DNA of 11,499 bases from a candidate division WOR-3 bacterium (GTDB taxonomy: Bacteria > Hydrothermota > Hydrothermia > LBFQ01 > DSFT01), in NCBI GenBank assembly GCA_965649115.1, contig CBFGJN010000059.1, positions 1 to 11,499 of the forward strand, written 5' to 3'. Below are positions 5-11,499 of the stretch, in pieces. The position numbers and the translations under genes were made by a program. The notes beneath the pieces are model-generated. The model searched no databases and had not been told where the DNA came from. It was given only the letters and a program-made list of their open reading frames with translations. The first letter of the stretch is position 1; each line of letters starts with the position of its first letter.

Positions 5-210
5 TGCCTTGTCCAATAATTCTAAAATTATTTATTTTACTATATTTTCCCACCCACCCTATAATTAAGCCTTCGGCTTATAAATACCCGTTTTTTGCCT
101 TTGGGGGGCGAAGCCCCCCCTAATAATCCCCCCAATAAATCAACAATTTCCTTAAAAATTTTATAAATTATTGATTATCAATCGCTTAACAATAATTATT
201 GGACAAAGCA
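5..210 (-). mobile_element. MITE/REP-like non-coding repeat element, copy 1 (complete, with terminal inverted repeats)
   Basis: TGCCTTGTCCAATAATT (5-21) and AATTATTGGACAAAGCA (194-210) form a 16/17 inverted repeat. Internal hairpins are TAAGCC-TTC-GGCTTA (66-80) and GGGGGGC-GAA-GCCCCCC (103-119). The reverse complement aligns collinearly with ~4049-4221. No ORF inside. Strand is given as the G-rich strand. Mobility is inferred, not shown. Confidence 0.7.
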
Positions 211-289
211 GAAGTAAATCGCTTTAATTTCCCAAAGCAAAAAATGGGAATTTTCTTTGGACACATCTAATTTTTTTATATTTTTACTT

Positions 290-295
290 TAAAAT
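290..295 (+). promoter_or_regulatory. Putative -10 box (TAAAAT), probable leaderless/short-leader promoter of the 307 ORF
   Basis: TAAAAT lies 11 nt upstream of ATG 307 and there is no SD. TTTAAAATTATC (288-299) recurs exactly at 4232-4243. Confidence 0.4.
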
Positions 296-306
296 TATCT
301 CGTTAT

Positions 307-1947: not shown

Positions 1948-4019
1948 AGTTCAACGTTAAAAAATTTTTATGGGGTATTAAATGGGCATTTATAACATAT
2001 CTTGTAATTATTATCATTTCAATTCCTATTATAATTTATCTTTCAATTGGACTTCCATCATTAGAAGAAATTGAGAGGTACAAAGCACCAAATTCAACAA
2101 AAGTTTATGATATAAATGGTAAGTTAATTTATGAATTTCACGAAGAAAGAAGAGTTCCTATAAAAATTAAGGAGCTTCCAAAACATGTTGTTATGGCTTT
2201 TGTTCTTCTTGAAGATAGAAAATTCTATAATCATTGGGGTGTTGATATAGATAGAATTATAAAATCAGCGATAAAAAACATCCTCACTTTAAGTATAAAG
2301 GAGGGAGCAAGTACAATAACCCAACAATTGGCAAGAAATATGTTTTTAACGCAAGAAAGAACAATCACAAGAAAAATAAGAGAAATTTTACTTGCTATTA
2401 AAATTGAAAGAACATTTTCAAAAGAAGAAATTCTTGAAAGATATTTAAATCAAATTTACATGGGAGGTGGGTTATATGGCATTCAAAGTGCAGCTGAATA
2501 CTACTTTGGTAAAACTGCGAAAGATTTAAATCCATTAGAAGCGTCAATTTTAGCAGGAATTCCAAAAGATCCGAGCAGATATTCACCTGCTAAAAACTAC
2601 GAATTATCATTACAAAGAGGAAAATTTATATTAAAATTACTATATGATAATAAAATTATAAGCAAAGATGAATATGAAAAATTTAAAAATTACAAGCCTG
2701 AAATTGTTTATTTTAAAGCACCTTTAAGTTATGGAGGGATAGCACCTTACTTCATAGATGAAGTAAGGAAGTACGTGGTTTCAAAATATGGAGAATATTT
2801 TTTGTTTAGAGGTGGTGGAAAAATTTGGACAACACTTGATAGTAGAATTCAAGAAATATGTAATAGAATTGTTGATAGTATGCTTGATGTTTATGACAAA
2901 AAATTCCCTACAAAACCTAAATACAAGGATTATAATCCTAAAACAAAAAAGCCTCCTAAATATCTACAAGTTGCACTTGTTGCTATTGATAATAATACTG
3001 GATATGTATTGGCTCTCATAGGTGGAAGGAATTATTATCATAGTCAATTTAATAGGGCAACGCAAGCTTATAGGCAAGCGGGATCAGCATTTAAGGTTTT
3101 CACTTACGCATCTGCTATGGAAAAAGGTTTCAATGCCACTGATATTGTCTATGATTTACCAATATCTATAAAACTTCCTGATACTATTTGGCAACCTGAG
3201 AACTTTGATAGGGAATATCTTGGACCAATTCCAATATGGAAAGCAATTGCATTGTCAAAGAACTTAGCAACTGTTAGATTACTTTTGGAAATAGGACCAG
3301 CTTCTGCTAGTGAAATGGCAAAAAGACTTGGTATTGAAACCAGTGTTCCTCCCTATTATTCAGTAGCACTTGGTGCAATTGATGTTAGACCAATAGAGCT
3401 CATAAACGCTTTTAGCACTATTGCAAGTTATGGAAATAGAAAAAAACCTATATTTATTATTAAAATTGAAGATGTTAACGGTGTTATTTTGGAGGAAAAT
3501 AAACCTCAATCAACAATTGTTATGGATTCAATAACTGCTTATTTAACAATTAATTTACTAAGACATGTCGTTGATGCTGGAACTGCTATTGATGCAAGGT
3601 TAGTTTATAAATTTGAACATCCCGCAGCTGGTAAGACAGGAACTACTGATGATTATAGAGATGCATGGTTTATTGGATTTACCCCTGAAATAACATTAGG
3701 TGTGTGGTTTGGTTATGATAGTACAAGAACAATTTTTCCAAATGCTACGGGAACACAATTAGCAGTTCCTGTTTGGTCATTAATTATGAAAGAAATTTAC
3801 AAAGATAAACCAAAAAAAAATTTTTATATTCCTTATGGAGTTAAATTTGTGGAAGTTTGTAGAATTTCAGGTAAGCTTCCAACAAAAAACTGCCCAAGAA
3901 TATATGAACCTTTTAGAGAAGGTAAAGAACCGAAAGAATATTGTCCTATCCATACCTCTGCAAAAGAAATTTCAGATACAACAATTGAGAAGAACTTTTT
4001 GAAAGACTTTTTAAGATAA
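1944..4019 (+). CDS. mrcA: Class A penicillin-binding protein, PBP1A family (transglycosylase + transpeptidase)
   Basis: N-terminal TM anchor. GT51 motifs EDRKFYNHWGVD, GASTITQQLARN and RKIREILLA. Transpeptidase motifs SxxK (GSAFK), SxN (SKN) and KTG (GKTGTT). C-terminal Cys/His tail CRISG..CP..CPIH. ATGA overlap with the upstream gene. Confidence 0.95.
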   Translation: MKFNVKKFLWGIKWAFITYLVIIIISIPIIIYLSIGLPSLEEIERYKAPNSTKVYDINGKLIYEFHEERRVPIKIKELPKHVVMAFVLLEDRKFYNHWGVDIDRIIKSAIKNILTLSIKEGASTITQQLARNMFLTQERTITRKIREILLAIKIERTFSKEEILERYLNQIYMGGGLYGIQSAAEYYFGKTAKDLNPLEASILAGIPKDPSRYSPAKNYELSLQRGKFILKLLYDNKIISKDEYEKFKNYKPEIVYFKAPLSYGGIAPYFIDEVRKYVVSKYGEYFLFRGGGKIWTTLDSRIQEICNRIVDSMLDVYDKKFPTKPKYKDYNPKTKKPPKYLQVALVAIDNNTGYVLALIGGRNYYHSQFNRATQAYRQAGSAFKVFTYASAMEKGFNATDIVYDLPISIKLPDTIWQPENFDREYLGPIPIWKAIALSKNLATVRLLLEIGPASASEMAKRLGIETSVPPYYSVALGAIDVRPIELINAFSTIASYGNRKKPIFIIKIEDVNGVILEENKPQSTIVMDSITAYLTINLLRHVVDAGTAIDARLVYKFEHPAAGKTGTTDDYRDAWFIGFTPEITLGVWFGYDSTRTIFPNATGTQLAVPVWSLIMKEIYKDKPKKNFYIPYGVKFVEVCRISGKLPTKNCPRIYEPFREGKEPKEYCPIHTSAKEISDTTIEKNFLKDFLR

Positions 4020-4026
4020 GACCTAG

Positions 4027-4221
4027 AAATAATTATATTTTTGGACACAATTGATTATCAAAGACTTATTAAAAATTCATTAAAATGCTTGAAATCATAG
4101 GGGGAATTAATGGGGGCTTCGCCTCCATTGCCGAAATATGGGCAATTAGAGCCGAAGGCTCAATTATAGGGTGGGTGGGAAAAATATAAAAATAATTATA
4201 TTTTTAGAATTTTTGGACACA
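4027..4221 (+). mobile_element. MITE/REP-like repeat element, copy 2 (inverted relative to copy 1)
   Basis: 22-bp exact match AATTATAGGGTGGGTGGGAAAA (4162-4183 = revcomp of 45-66) and 12-bp GGGGGCTTCGCC (4112-4123 = revcomp of 107-118). Hairpins at 4109-4129 and 4149-4161. Ends in TTTTTGGACACA, similar to the copy 1 terminus. Confidence 0.75.
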
Positions 4222-4222
4222 T

Positions 4223-4252
4223 TAGACACATTTTAAAATTATCCTTTAAAAT
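4223..4252 (+). promoter_or_regulatory. Putative sigma70 promoter of the small lipoprotein gene (TAGACA-N18-TAAAAT)
   Basis: TAGACA at 4223-4228 and TAAAAT at 4247-4252, inside the TTAAAATTTTCAAA motif shared with the ahcY and fabD upstream regions. Confidence 0.4.
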
Positions 4253-4268
4253 TTTCAAACTTACCGAA

Positions 4269-4283: not shown

Positions 4284-4478
4284 ATGAGAAACCTTTTACT
4301 TGCCCTAAGCATAGCGCTAGCTCTTGGAGCATGCGGTGGTGGTCAAAAGGCAGAAGAACAGAAACCAGCTGAACAAACTCAACAACAAACTACAACTACT
4401 ACTGATACTACACAAAAGACTACTACTGATACTACTAAAAAGACAGAGCAAACCCAGACCTCTGGTGAGAAGAAGTAA
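4284..4478 (+). CDS. Small Thr/Gln-rich lipoprotein (64 aa, low complexity)
   Basis: Signal peptide with lipobox LGA|C, strong SD, polar disordered mature part ending in GEKK, and a downstream hairpin. Confidence 0.85.
   Translation: MRNLLLALSIALALGACGGGQKAEEQKPAEQTQQQTTTTTDTTQKTTTDTTKKTEQTQTSGEKK
4395..4442 (+). repeat. 24-bp in-frame tandem duplication (TTTDTTQK / TTTDTTKK)
   Basis: ACTACTACTGATACTACACAAAAG (4395-4418) versus ACTACTACTGATACTACTAAAAAG (4419-4442), 22/24 identical. Confidence 0.85.
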
Positions 4479-9224: not shown

Positions 9225-9240
9225 ACTTTGAAAATTTTAA
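9225..9240 (-). promoter_or_regulatory. Putative -10 box/leaderless promoter motif of ahcY
   Basis: Minus strand reads TTAAAATTTTCAAAGT-ATG. TAAAAT is 9 nt before the start and there is no SD. Confidence 0.55.
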
Positions 9241-9260
9241 GGCATATTTATAGGGTAGTT

Positions 9261-9351
9261 AGGCAAAATTGGGCTTTGAACAAGGCTTATTTTCAGGGCG
9301 GGTAGGAAAAATATATTAAAATATATGTTTTTGGAATTATTGGATACAGCA
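9261..9351 (+). repeat. Decayed partial copy 3 of the intergenic repeat element
   Basis: AGGCAAAATTGGG...AAGGCTTATTTTCAGGGCGGGTAGGAAAAATATATTAAAATA...GAATTATTGGATACAGCA is collinear with the minus strand of copy 1 (AGGCAAAAAACGGG...AAGGCTTAATTATAGGGTGGGTGGGAAAATATAGTAAAATA...GAATTATTGGACAAGGCA). Confidence 0.7.
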
Positions 9352-9382
9352 TTTTCTTCTGCAATCATGTTATGTAAAAGCA

Positions 9383-9398
9383 TTAAAATTTTCAACTT
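9383..9398 (+). promoter_or_regulatory. Putative -10 box/leaderless promoter motif of fabD
   Basis: TTAAAATTTTCAACTT-ATG. TAAAAT (9384-9389) is 9 nt before the start, there is no SD, and the motif is 14/16 identical to the ahcY motif. Confidence 0.55.
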
Positions 9399-10280
9399 AT
9401 GAAAACTGCCTTTATGTTTCCCGGCCAAGGCTCACAGTATGTAGGAATGGGTAAAGAATTATTTGATAATTACGAAATAGCAAAGGAAGTTTTTAATAGA
9501 GTTAAAAGCGTTTTAGGAAAGGATTTTTTAGAATTAGTTTTTTATGGAAGTGAAGAAGATTTAAGGAAAACAGAAAATGCTCAACCTGCAATTTATTCAG
9601 TTTCAGTAGCATCATTAGAAGTAATAAAAGAAAAAAATTTATATAGTGCTGATATTTGTTTTGGTCATAGTCTTGGGGAATTTACTGCTTTATATTGTGC
9701 CAGTGTTTTTAGTTTTGAGTATGGACTTAAAATTACGCGAATAAGAGGAGAAATAATGTCAAAGGCAAGTAAAGGTTCTATGGCAGCAGTTATTGGATTA
9801 AGTGAAGAAAAACTAAATGAAGTTTTGAAAAAATATAAAACTTTGGTTATAGCTAATTATAATTCACCAGAACAACTTGTAATATCAGGTGATATAGAAG
9901 AAATAAAAAAAGCTATTGAAGAATTAAGAGGATTAGCAAAGAGGGTTATTGAATTAAATGTTTCAGGTGCTTTCCATTCCCCACTTATGGAAGAAGCAAG
10001 TATTGAATTCTCAAAGTACTTAAAAAAAGATGAGCTTAAAGAACCCAAAATTCCTGTTATAATGAACTCAACAGGAGAAATTGCTTATAATTTAGACCAA
10101 ATTTATAATGCATTATTAAAACAATTAAGAAGTTCAGTTTTATTTACAAAAATGGTAAATAATGCTTATAATTATGGAGTTAGAAAATTTGTAGAAATTG
10201 GACCTTCAAAAGTTTTATCAGGTCTTGTAAAAAGAATAATAAAAGATGAAAACATTGAGATATTTAATTTTGGTTCTTAG
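9399..10280 (+). CDS. fabD: Malonyl-CoA:ACP transacylase
   Basis: FPGQGSQ, TENAQPAI, GHSLGE (catalytic Ser), ANYNSPEQLVISG, VSGAFHS and EIGP motifs. Confidence 0.97.
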   Translation: MKTAFMFPGQGSQYVGMGKELFDNYEIAKEVFNRVKSVLGKDFLELVFYGSEEDLRKTENAQPAIYSVSVASLEVIKEKNLYSADICFGHSLGEFTALYCASVFSFEYGLKITRIRGEIMSKASKGSMAAVIGLSEEKLNEVLKKYKTLVIANYNSPEQLVISGDIEEIKKAIEELRGLAKRVIELNVSGAFHSPLMEEASIEFSKYLKKDELKEPKIPVIMNSTGEIAYNLDQIYNALLKQLRSSVLFTKMVNNAYNYGVRKFVEIGPSKVLSGLVKRIIKDENIEIFNFGS

Positions 10281-11238
10281 TATTCTTTCTTGTAAGAAAG
10301 ATATTCAAGTTCCTGAAATTGTTCAAGGAAGGAAAATTTTATTAGCATTTCAAAATTCAAAAAAAGTTCATTATTTTTTGGTTGATAGTCAAAAATTGTT
10401 CTTTCTATTTAATAGTGGAGATGTTCCTAATGCATTCATTAAAATAAATGAAAATGAGTTTTATTTAATAAATTCGGGAGGTTTTACTGGCTCACCATCA
10501 ATTCAAAAATTTAATTTTTTAAATGGTGAGGTTATAACATATCCCTTAAACAATAATTATAATCCAATGTTTGGAGTTTATTTTAACGGAAAATTGTTCA
10601 TTACAGATTTTGGAAAGTCCTATTCTGAAAATGTTTTAGTATTTAAAGATGGTCAAATTATAGATAGTGTAAAGACATCAAACAGACCAATTGATATTCA
10701 AATTGTAGATAGTTTTCTCGTTGTTTCTACAAACGGGATGAAGTCTGACTATAGTTATGACACAATTTCAAAAATTTTCAAAATTTCTATAAATTCTCTT
10801 AAAAAATTGGATAGTTTAAACTTGTTTTTAGGGGCATCAAATATCGGTATTTATAAAGATACAATTTTCGTAATATCAACGGGCATTTACAATCAAACGC
10901 CTTCAAGAATTTACAAAATTAACAAGAACTTTCAAAAATTAGATAGTTTAACTATATCAAAAAATATATATTCTTTTGGTTTAAATAGTGATTATTTAAT
11001 TCTTGGTAGTTGGGACGGATGGATCTATGTTCTAAACCATAATTTACAAAAGCTTGATAGTTTAAAAATTTCAAATAGTATAAACTTTATTTGTTCGTTT
11101 GAGGATAAATTTTTCATTACTACAAATGGATTTTCTTATAGTCCAAATTATTTAATTATTTTTAAACCTTTTTTAAAAGCGGATAGTATAAAACTATCAG
11201 ATGAGGATTTAGGTATTGGTCCTTGTCTTGTGTTCTAA
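10246..11238 (+). CDS. Lipoprotein with probable beta-propeller fold (YncE-like)
   Basis: Signal peptide with lipobox ILS|C. Roughly 40-45 aa beta-rich repeats ending in (K)LDSL/IDSV/ADSI. Overlaps the fabD 3' end by 35 nt. Family assignment is tentative. Confidence 0.65.
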   Translation: MKTLRYLILVLSILSCKKDIQVPEIVQGRKILLAFQNSKKVHYFLVDSQKLFFLFNSGDVPNAFIKINENEFYLINSGGFTGSPSIQKFNFLNGEVITYPLNNNYNPMFGVYFNGKLFITDFGKSYSENVLVFKDGQIIDSVKTSNRPIDIQIVDSFLVVSTNGMKSDYSYDTISKIFKISINSLKKLDSLNLFLGASNIGIYKDTIFVISTGIYNQTPSRIYKINKNFQKLDSLTISKNIYSFGLNSDYLILGSWDGWIYVLNHNLQKLDSLKISNSINFICSFEDKFFITTNGFSYSPNYLIIFKPFLKADSIKLSDEDLGIGPCLVF

Positions 11239-11264: not shown

Positions 11265-11499
11265 TAACTCCCCAATAGTTTTTTAAAATTGGGTAGGGAA
11301 AATTGTAAGTAACACCAAGCCAAAACTCCATTTAATTCATCAAATTCAATTTATCAAATTAAGTTTAATAAATTATTCATTATCAATAATTTAAAATTTT
11401 AATAGCTTTACCTCTATCGCTTTCTCAATAAAAATTCAATTTTTTGAAGTTTTAATTTGTCATTTTAATCTCATTTAAGTTGCTTATTTCCAATAACTT

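Follow-up and report, generated by a model that had tools for sequence, protein, structure and literature searches.

The repeat described here is a real and active-looking MITE family that belongs to an IS903-like insertion sequence (IS) and homes, in a fixed orientation, to the edges of promoter-like sites; it is neither a REP/RAYT repeat nor a known RNA family. It was encountered in a stretch of 11,499 nt (the window, meaning the whole stretch of DNA that was analyzed), whose contig is C59 of the genome of a small hot-spring bacterium (1.848 Mb in 99 contigs, 27.6% G+C, 94.5% complete). Very probably, the family is a non-coding MITE of the IS903 group that is mobilized in trans, carries 9-bp target duplications, is placed in one orientation upstream of a putative promoter box, and builds arrays by hitting the same promoter again.

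Three copies of the element were found in the window (Table 1). Direct reading of copy A confirmed that positions 5–21 and the reverse complement of 194–210 share 16 of 17 bases around a G+C-rich core, as stated in the original prediction. Two G+C-rich hairpins (67–79 and 103–119) lie between these termini in a very AT-rich setting. A repeat search and a three-way alignment matched 5–78 with 4150–4219 and 9305–9351 on the opposite strand. A profile of the element was built from 159 full-length copies of the same genome, and with it three window copies were significant: 5–210, 4221–4048, and 9351–9265. The latter two agree with the homologs previously placed at ∼4027–4221 (opposite orientation) and ∼9261–9351 (decayed). 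A further profile match, at 11,359–11,395, was not significant (E 0.13). Identity between copy A and other copies in the genome reaches 97%. Because the contig starts 4 nt before copy A, neither the flank on its left nor its target duplication can be seen. The eroded right end of copy B abuts the stop codon (4017–4019) of a PBP1A-like gene, and the right-hand target duplication is lost. In profile coordinates, the left end of copy B is 19 nt from the box at 4244–4254. The end of copy C is 29 nt from the box of the fabD-like gene, which is not the canonical spacing described below. If the weak match at 213–268 is a remnant of the element, its TIR-like end (∼255–268) would face the box of the gene at 307, about 18 nt away.

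Table 1. Copies of the element, their parts, and neighboring promoter-like boxes in the window
Feature	Position	Strand	Basis
Copy A, complete MITE, 206 bp	5..210	+	Profile 1–206, 186.8 bits, E 4e-55
Copy A left TIR, counterpart of the right end of the parent IS	5..21	+	Pairing over 237 copies; comparison with IS-R
Hairpin H1, 5-bp stem, TTC loop	67..79	+	Pairing over 237 copies; present in centroid fold
Hairpin H2, 7-bp G/C stem, 3-nt loop (GAA in copy A)	103..119	+	Stem pairing; present in centroid fold
Copy A right TIR, counterpart of the left (transposase-start) end of the parent IS	194..210	+	Pairing over 237 copies; IS-L end
Possible short decayed remnant, weak	213..268	-	nhmmer E 0.014 over 164–253, plus reading by eye
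Promoter-like box that differs from CTTTAAAATTT at one position; an ATG follows after 9 nt, at 307	287..297	+	Read from sequence
Copy B	4022..4224	-	Profile 4–180 at 4221–4048, E 4.5e-36; right end eroded to ∼4022
Promoter-like box CTTTAAAATTT of the small gene 4284–4478	4244..4254	+	Likewise found in the sister species, where the site is empty
Older fragment of the same left segment (C-tract and half of H1), adjoining copy C	9239..9269	-	77% to the copy B segment
Copy C, left 92 profile positions (1–92)	9265..9351	-	Profile E 1.5e-11
Promoter-like box CATTAAAATTT; the FabD-like gene begins with an ATG after 7 nt, at 9399	9381..9391	+	Pfam Acyl_transf_1 for the gene

The original prediction had also held that the window encodes no transposase or HUH protein, and a Pfam scan of its 11 larger open reading frames (ORFs) detected neither; these ORFs are housekeeping genes or have no Pfam family. 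There is no ORF of at least 60 aa inside 5–210, and no tRNAs were found in the window. A scan of 1–330 for promoter and terminator consensus sequences gave nothing above shuffled sequences. The Rfam check that had been proposed was run as a permissive cmscan of the whole window; it returned one unrelated chance match (E 0.13) and no Rfam family for the element.

The family is large, well above anything that chance would give. A profile search of the genome returned 724 matches, of which 237 are full length; together the matches occupy 97,650 bases or 5.3% of the genome. Moreover, blastn with copy A gave 744 segments, 182 of which cover at least 180 of 215 bases. The original prediction of a high-copy, TIR-bounded, non-autonomous element mobilized in trans had been staked on further copies in the genome; these number in the hundreds, and the parent IS resides in the same genome. 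Both the copy number and the genome share are unusually high for a 1.85-Mb genome. A copy lies within 300 nt of 105 of the 198 contig ends, and it is because of the element that genomes of this lineage assemble badly. The consensus is 205–206 bp long, and size classes of ∼200, 180, 160, and 140 bp are internal-deletion derivatives. A twin at ≥98% identity exists for 43 of the 237 full copies, and the median nearest-neighbor identity is 91.6%.

The boundaries of the element are well defined. TIR columns 1–17 pair with 206–190 in most of the 237 full copies, and aligned copies stop sharply at the 17-nt inverted repeat, where 9-bp direct repeats of varied sequence flank them. Perfect 9-bp flanking repeats were found for 126 of 1190 inverted TIR pairs (pairs no more than 6 kb apart), which answers the suggestion that target-site duplications be sought. 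These 126 comprise 106 single elements of 80–220 bp and 20 longer ones, mostly dimers and trimers. The only long target-duplicated pair (1426 bp, contig C11) encloses two genes without Pfam matches and no transposase, and it was set aside. The family thus shows the properties by which prokaryotic MITEs are recognized: TIRs, a target duplication of fixed length, and short, non-coding sequence in many copies. An autonomous element with the same ends was also found, the middle of which is represented by a proxy protein, P0002.

Evidence for this parent came from TIRs that do not belong to the MITE. There are 1246 TIR matches in the genome, and 259 of them have no MITE sequence after them; among these, two interiors recur at contig ends. 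One (IS-L) occurs at 10 places, 8 of which are contig ends, and consists of the TIR, a host-type box, an ATG 5 nt further on, and an open frame, the longest piece of which encodes 56 residues. The other (IS-R) occurs at 16 contig ends, shares the inverted repeat of the MITE, and is 100% identical between copies. P0002, a 300-aa database protein, is 92% identical to the 56-residue N-terminal fragment. In tblastn searches, its first 18–56 residues are encoded at 10 places in the genome (90%–100% identity) and its last 10–14 residues at 13 contig ends (100% identity). The search that had been proposed for a transposase gene bounded by the same termini therefore recovered both the ends of the parent IS and the termini of its coding sequence. 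Comparison of the subterminal sequences equates the left end of the MITE with IS-R and its right end with IS-L. The length of the parent is estimated at ∼1.05 kb (67 nt + 903 nt + ∼75 nt); the IS is unassembled in this genome, and its middle is known through P0002 and related metagenome loci only.

P0002 scores 245.5 bits against NF033579 ("IS5 family transposase"; cut-off 140), and its Pfam domains (PF01609, 88.9 bits; PF13737, 73.5 bits) span residues 15–290 of 300. It is an IS5-type DDE transposase, of which the genome's own copy is visible at its termini only. The parent resembles IS903 and IS903B in having a single ∼300-aa transposase with PF13737 and PF01609 that scores above the NF033579 cut-off. 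Residues 4–290 of P0002 align colinearly with the IS903B transposases, although protein identity is only 26%–27%. The IS-L end of the parent equals the IS903B end (taken from a plasmid record) at 14 of 18 bases, and the 9-bp target duplication together with these IS903-like 18-bp ends places the element in the IS903 group. Judged by these sequence comparisons, the parent is an IS903-group element of the IS5 family, present in many identical copies (at least 10–16), and because of these many identical copies it has collapsed out of the assembly. The earlier statement that the repeat could not be assigned to a named family has been overtaken by these matches.

Conventional domain searches did not reveal the parent. 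A six-frame search with PF01609 found nothing in the genome and was negative in all five genomes of the genus (20 relatives were searched), and PF00665, PF13737, and PF01797 were likewise negative in the five genomes of the genus. The latter three were negative because the assembly contains no more of the parent IS coding sequence than a few codons at either end. PF01609 matches in other genera (e.g., locus L040) were considered as the parent and rejected as unrelated in sequence. A 33-nt stretch of the IS interior had 0 matches in metagenome contigs, and the IS left end gave only TIR-length matches in four congeners and one family member. A related but broken IS copy spans ∼374–1296 of locus L112, a metagenome contig.

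The elements are positioned with respect to a host sequence. Of 262 left ends with no other copy ahead of them, 203 have AAATTTTAAAG upstream, allowing at most one mismatch. It starts at −30 before 111 of these array-first ends, at −29 before 41, and at −22 or −23 before 34. On the other strand, AAATTTTAAAG reads CTTTAAAATTT, a box that occurs 2108 times in the genome and is followed within 45 nt by an ORF of at least 60 aa in 810 cases. The start codon is 4–9 nt after the box at 565 of these 810 sites, which is why we refer to it as a promoter box, and CTTTAAAATTT lies within 60 nt upstream of 451 of the 1404 ORFs of at least 150 aa. Upstream of the box, 346 unoccupied sites conserve zero information, so there is no conserved −35 signal. 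We infer that the box is a putative −10 region of promoters that lack a conserved −35, and many of the box-bearing promoters would serve leaderless or near-leaderless mRNAs.

An element end was found upstream at 314 of the 810 ORF-associated boxes (39%). Where boxes are occupied, the spacing is 19 nt in 144 cases, 18 nt in 50, 11 nt in 38, and 12 nt in 14, and the flanking spacings are rare (20 nt in 5, 17 nt in 3). Only 33 of the 1298 boxes without a downstream ORF are occupied, a low figure that would be seen if active promoters are recognized and also if insertions within genes are lost. The orientation is constrained as well. Complete left ends face a box in 225 cases, with 162 at 18–19 nt and 44 at 10–12 nt; right ends do so in 23, with 2 at 18–19 nt and 3 at 11–12 nt. 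The parent follows the same rule: 11 of the 16 IS-R ends have a box at the same spacing, one more has a box with two mismatches, and 3 come after a MITE end, whereas a box is found at that place in 0 of the 10 IS-L flanks. The canonical spacing holds for 30 of the 35 youngest MITEs (those with a twin at ≥98%) and for 33 of 36 and 55 of 71 in older groups. Since the pattern is as strong in the youngest MITEs as in older ones, it points to target choice rather than slow selection. A box at the canonical distance is missing from about 20%–30% of the array-first left ends.

The same arrangement extends to relatives. Two related metagenome ISs, with transposases at 75% and 61% identity, end exactly 19 nt from a box, which is CTTTATACTTT before an EF-Tu-like gene in one case and CTTTAAAATTT in the other. 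Of 15 non-tandem left ends at loci of sister species, 10 have canonical spacings. The family therefore displays insertion in one orientation and at a set distance upstream of a promoter-like box, as do Mutator-like homing elements. Insertion of this kind, the main point here, was not mentioned in the original prediction.

Many loci carry more than one copy. The 455 loci include 273 singles, 116 doubles, 51 triples, and 15 larger groups, and in 154 of the 182 multi-copy loci all copies are on one strand. When copies are ranked outward from the promoter, 60%, 31%, and 8% are full length at ranks 1 to 3, and the corresponding profile scores are 0.73, 0.58, and 0.50 bits per position. Between adjacent full copies, identity is 77.7% (n = 40, maximum 84%), compared with 78.3% between random pairs. 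Because neighbors are no more alike than random pairs, the arrays come from separate insertions and not from local duplication. At 77 of 90 junctions, a complete right end is separated from the following left end by a 9-nt spacer. In 30 of the 61 nine-nt junctions that are testable, the spacer repeats the 9 nt found upstream of the proximal copy, and in the other 31 it differs. The matching half is consistent with re-insertion into the target duplicate nearer the promoter. The differing spacers speak against a simple re-insertion model, which does not predict them, and may be explained by dimers that move as units. Dimers flanked by one duplication were seen, and one spacer is common to two loci on contig C5; both hint that multimers are also mobile.

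Hairpins H1 and H2 are the best-conserved features of the interior. Over 237 copies, their stem pairs are 89%–100% complementary (94%–100% for H1, 89%–99% for H2). Profile pair 67–73 of H1 is C-G in 148 copies and G-C in 67. The loops of H2 occur as reverse-complement pairs: in 102 copies with a perfect stem, we counted TTC 26/GAA 14, AGA 15/TCT 3, TTT 11/AAA 10, and TCC 8/GGA 8. The H2 loop differs in 16 of 25 near-identical copy pairs (≥97% identity), and we infer that it is inverted by hairpin- or cruciform-mediated template switching in DNA. Neither H1 nor H2 occurs in the ends of the parent IS as assembled. In the MITE, these structures may be kept for promoter insulation or as an aid to transposition.

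These results can be accommodated in a simple mechanism. The MITE would be an internal-deletion-type derivative of the IS5-family, IS903-group IS in the same genome. The ∼300-aa DDE transposase would bind the 17–18-bp TIRs that the two elements share, move the MITE in trans, and join it to staggered cuts 9 bp apart to yield 9-bp target duplications. The IS-right-type end would be placed 18–19 nt (10–12 nt in a minor class) upstream of the host box CTTTAAAATTT, with the transposase, alone or via RNA polymerase bound there, probably reading the box. Because the proximal target duplicate keeps its distance to the box, the same promoter would stay open to repeat insertion; this would produce head-to-tail arrays in which the promoter-adjacent copy is the youngest. 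The interior hairpins would presumably matter for propagation. The narrower proposal, that a one-gene IS903-type transposase without a targeting domain recognizes "−10-only" promoters, directly or via docked RNA polymerase, and integrates with single-base precision and fixed polarity, stands in our estimate at an even chance.

We considered whether the box might instead be a motif dedicated to targeting or attachment, or be bound by some other DNA-binding protein, and lie before genes by coincidence, with the element homing to the sequence itself and not to a promoter. The box is an unusually uniform 11-mer, and the lack of an accompanying −35-like signal would suit such a motif. Its location argues otherwise, since it ends 4–9 nt before a start codon at 565 of 810 sites and, for 451 of 1404 long ORFs, falls in the 60 nt upstream. 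Moreover, the core of the box, TAAAAT, is −10-like, the ATG of the parent's own transposase follows the same box after 5 nt, and the variant CTTTATACTTT, 19 nt from a related IS, precedes an EF-Tu-like gene with a normal Shine-Dalgarno leader. We therefore regard a non-promoter role of the box as unlikely. Quite unlikely, too, is an ordinary MITE that inserts at random or with a mere AT bias and is left at promoter edges by purifying selection, the positions just upstream of core promoters being the only harmless ones in a gene-dense genome. Such selection also predicts that boxes in presumed coding sequence are nearly empty (33 of 1298), and a compact genome offers few neutral sites. It does not, however, generate single-base spacing (144 ends at 19 nt and 50 at 18 nt, versus 5 at 20 nt and 3 at 17 nt) or a left-to-right ratio of 162 to 2 at 18–19 nt, and the youngest cohorts are already patterned (30 of 35 MITEs with a ≥98% twin; 11 of 16 identical IS copies).

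The hairpins bear on two other explanations, both of which were raised by the original prediction. It had seen the hallmarks of MITEs and of REP repeats combined in the element. The MITE part stands, on the TIRs and 9-bp duplications; the part that concerns REP, REPIN, and HUH enzymes does not. Like REP/BIME and REPIN sequences, the copies are abundant intergenic repeats with G+C-rich hairpins, two of them conserved in an AT-rich genome, and the occurrence of the H2 loop in both orientations points to hairpin extrusion in DNA. Yet HUH elements make neither 9-bp target duplications nor 17-bp TIRs, and the TIRs here are those of a DDE insertion sequence. The Y1 domain (PF01797, Y1_Tnp) was detected in 0 of 5 genomes of the genus, whereas a control search detected it in 6 of 14 reference genomes. 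Spread by a RAYT or IS200/IS605-type HUH enzyme is thus extremely improbable. The other suggestion was a structured RNA; for copies that are small RNA genes or cis-regulatory RNAs resembling transposons, we see very little likelihood. The single-strand DNA fold is better than that of shuffled sequences (z = −3.06), and one H1 stem pair is compensated. Most of the fold energy, however, comes from the TIRs pairing with each other, and the centroid keeps only the TIR stem, H1, and H2. RNAalifold on 120 copies returned almost no consensus structure beyond H1; mutual information came mainly from columns that are linked to subfamilies and do not pair, and from a subfamily with an internal deletion. 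Contigs resembling the element were seen in RNA libraries and are uninformative given DNA carry-over and summing over copies; all four public runs consist of contigs rather than reads and so give neither transcript ends nor strand. There is no Rfam match, and the target duplications, the deletion derivatives, and the decay along arrays are the behavior of a transposon. The hairpins are real and conserved, and a structured non-coding RNA as the identity of the element is without support.

Oriented placement by a trans-acting IS903-like transposase can be compared with known systems for target selection. Tn7 uses dedicated target-selector proteins and one chromosomal site. The present element resembles it in oriented insertion at a set distance from a recognized feature, and not into that feature, and differs in that a one-gene IS without an extra domain is used at hundreds of sites. 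We found no report of promoter homing in the IS903 group or the IS5 family in the open-access full-text literature. The closest parallel is offered by TnGBS, ISLre2, and ISKra4, which have Mutator-like DDE transposases. At sigma-A promoters, they insert 15–17 bp upstream of the −35 and keep one orientation, in which the right repeat adjoins the promoter, a behavior that the authors of the report call unusual among prokaryotic transposases (PMC3942029). The fixed distance, the conserved orientation, and the right inverted repeat at the promoter are common to both systems, and in both the asymmetry of the ends is the likely basis of orientation. The parallel is functional and not one of membership: the present transposase is of the IS5/IS4 DDE type, a superfamily unrelated to the Mutator-like (p-MULT) enzymes. 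In addition, the junction here falls at the expected start of a −35 hexamer, 18–19 nt from a −10-type box, compared with the 15–17 bp before the −35 given in that report. A high-copy MITE partner and age-ordered arrays characterize the present system and are absent from that account of TnGBS, ISLre2, and ISKra4, in the part available (PMC3942029).

Bacterial transposons that home to promoter edges are rare, and the one documented case involves another transposase superfamily (PMC3942029). If the present interpretation is correct, promoter homing has a second, independent origin among bacterial transposases, and this safe-haven strategy evolved more than once. About two fifths of the promoter-like sites of the lineage would have been colonized, with age-ordered arrays as a record of successive insertions. 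It would also offer a compact, single-protein system in which to study, and perhaps use, oriented promoter-adjacent insertion at high temperature. Foreign DNA directly upstream of the core promoter at ∼39% of promoter-like sites may shape gene regulation in this lineage.

The comparison of orthologous empty sites that had been proposed was informative at the locus of copy B, which lacks the element in all four congeners (G001, G002, G003, and G004). G002, which is 90%–91% identical at this locus, keeps the box and the surrounding sequence, and contigs of a relative from two RNA-library runs join 4000 to 4221 with the same 19 letters as the G002 empty site. The two genes that flank copy C are split between contigs in G001, G003, and G004, and in G002 the contig stops at this point. 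Clear matches to the element, in a set of 41 genomes (G000 and 40 relatives), are confined to the genus, in G000, G002 (33 matches), and G003 (3 matches); G004 and G014 each have a single weak match, and G001 has none. A pattern scan of public genome contigs listed 49 stretches. Twenty of these are single matches in unrelated organisms, about the chance expectation for the pattern, and the other 29 lie in one MAG titled Candidatus Hydrothermia bacterium.

Across the source genome, the promoter-like CTTTAAAATTT box is uniform in sequence and often stands just ahead of start codons: in 565 of 810 sites that combine a box with an ORF, 4–9 nt separate the end of the box from the start codon. No conserved −35 element was found upstream of the box in the genome-wide set. 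These observations point to "−10-only" promoters and leaderless or near-leaderless mRNAs for a large fraction of the genes. The boxes in the window are listed in the table together with the other features discussed here.

Coordinates of the features in the window and the source genome
Feature	Position	Size	Remarks
CTTTAAAATTT-type box	window 287–297, 4244–4254, 9381–9391		
H2 loop	MITE profile columns 107–109; window 110–112 in copy A	3 nt	
Palindrome TTGAT-N-ATCAA	MITE profile columns 167–177; window 171–181	11 nt	well conserved
L038	source genome contig C11, 31359–32784	1426 bp	ends are MITE-family TIRs with a perfect 9-bp duplication
Small ORF	window 4284–4478	64 aa	start resembles a signal peptide; the Pfam matches are weak and of a mucin-like, low-complexity kind

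In the MITE interior, the loop of H2, the central G/C hairpin, occurs across copies as reverse-complement pairs of triplets (TTC/GAA, TTT/AAA, TCC/GGA, and TCT/AGA), and the triplet differs even among copies sharing 97% identity or more, a pattern that looks like recurrent inversion of the loop. The palindrome is located 30–40 nt inward of the right end and has no counterpart at the matching end of the parent IS, the IS903-like element that shares the TIRs of the MITE. The palindrome may be a protein-binding site. An internal deletion (profile columns ∼90–105) that removes the 5′ half of H2 is common to about 58 of the 237 "full" copies; this subfamily has spread nonetheless.

The TIR-bounded unit L038 contains the truncated left part of a MITE copy, a pair of genes that run in the same direction (242 aa and 65 aa; no Pfam match was found for either), and a full copy. 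Such an arrangement may represent a composite carrying cargo. On contig C5 of the same genome, an identical 9-nt spacer separates two adjoining copies at two loci (near 25,630 and 39,670), which would reflect either MITE dimers transposing as units or duplication of a segment.

Elsewhere in the window, positions 11359–11395 resemble the right subterminal part of the MITE (82% over 34 nt); the profile search returned a match there that was not significant (E = 0.13). For two sizeable ORFs, 307–1947 (546 aa) and 10246–11238 (330 aa), the Pfam search gave no family with an E-value of 0.001 or below. Contig depth, which is a poor measure of expression, was by far the highest at the small ORF in both of two runs from RNA libraries of a relative (18,925 and 456, versus tens for its neighbors).
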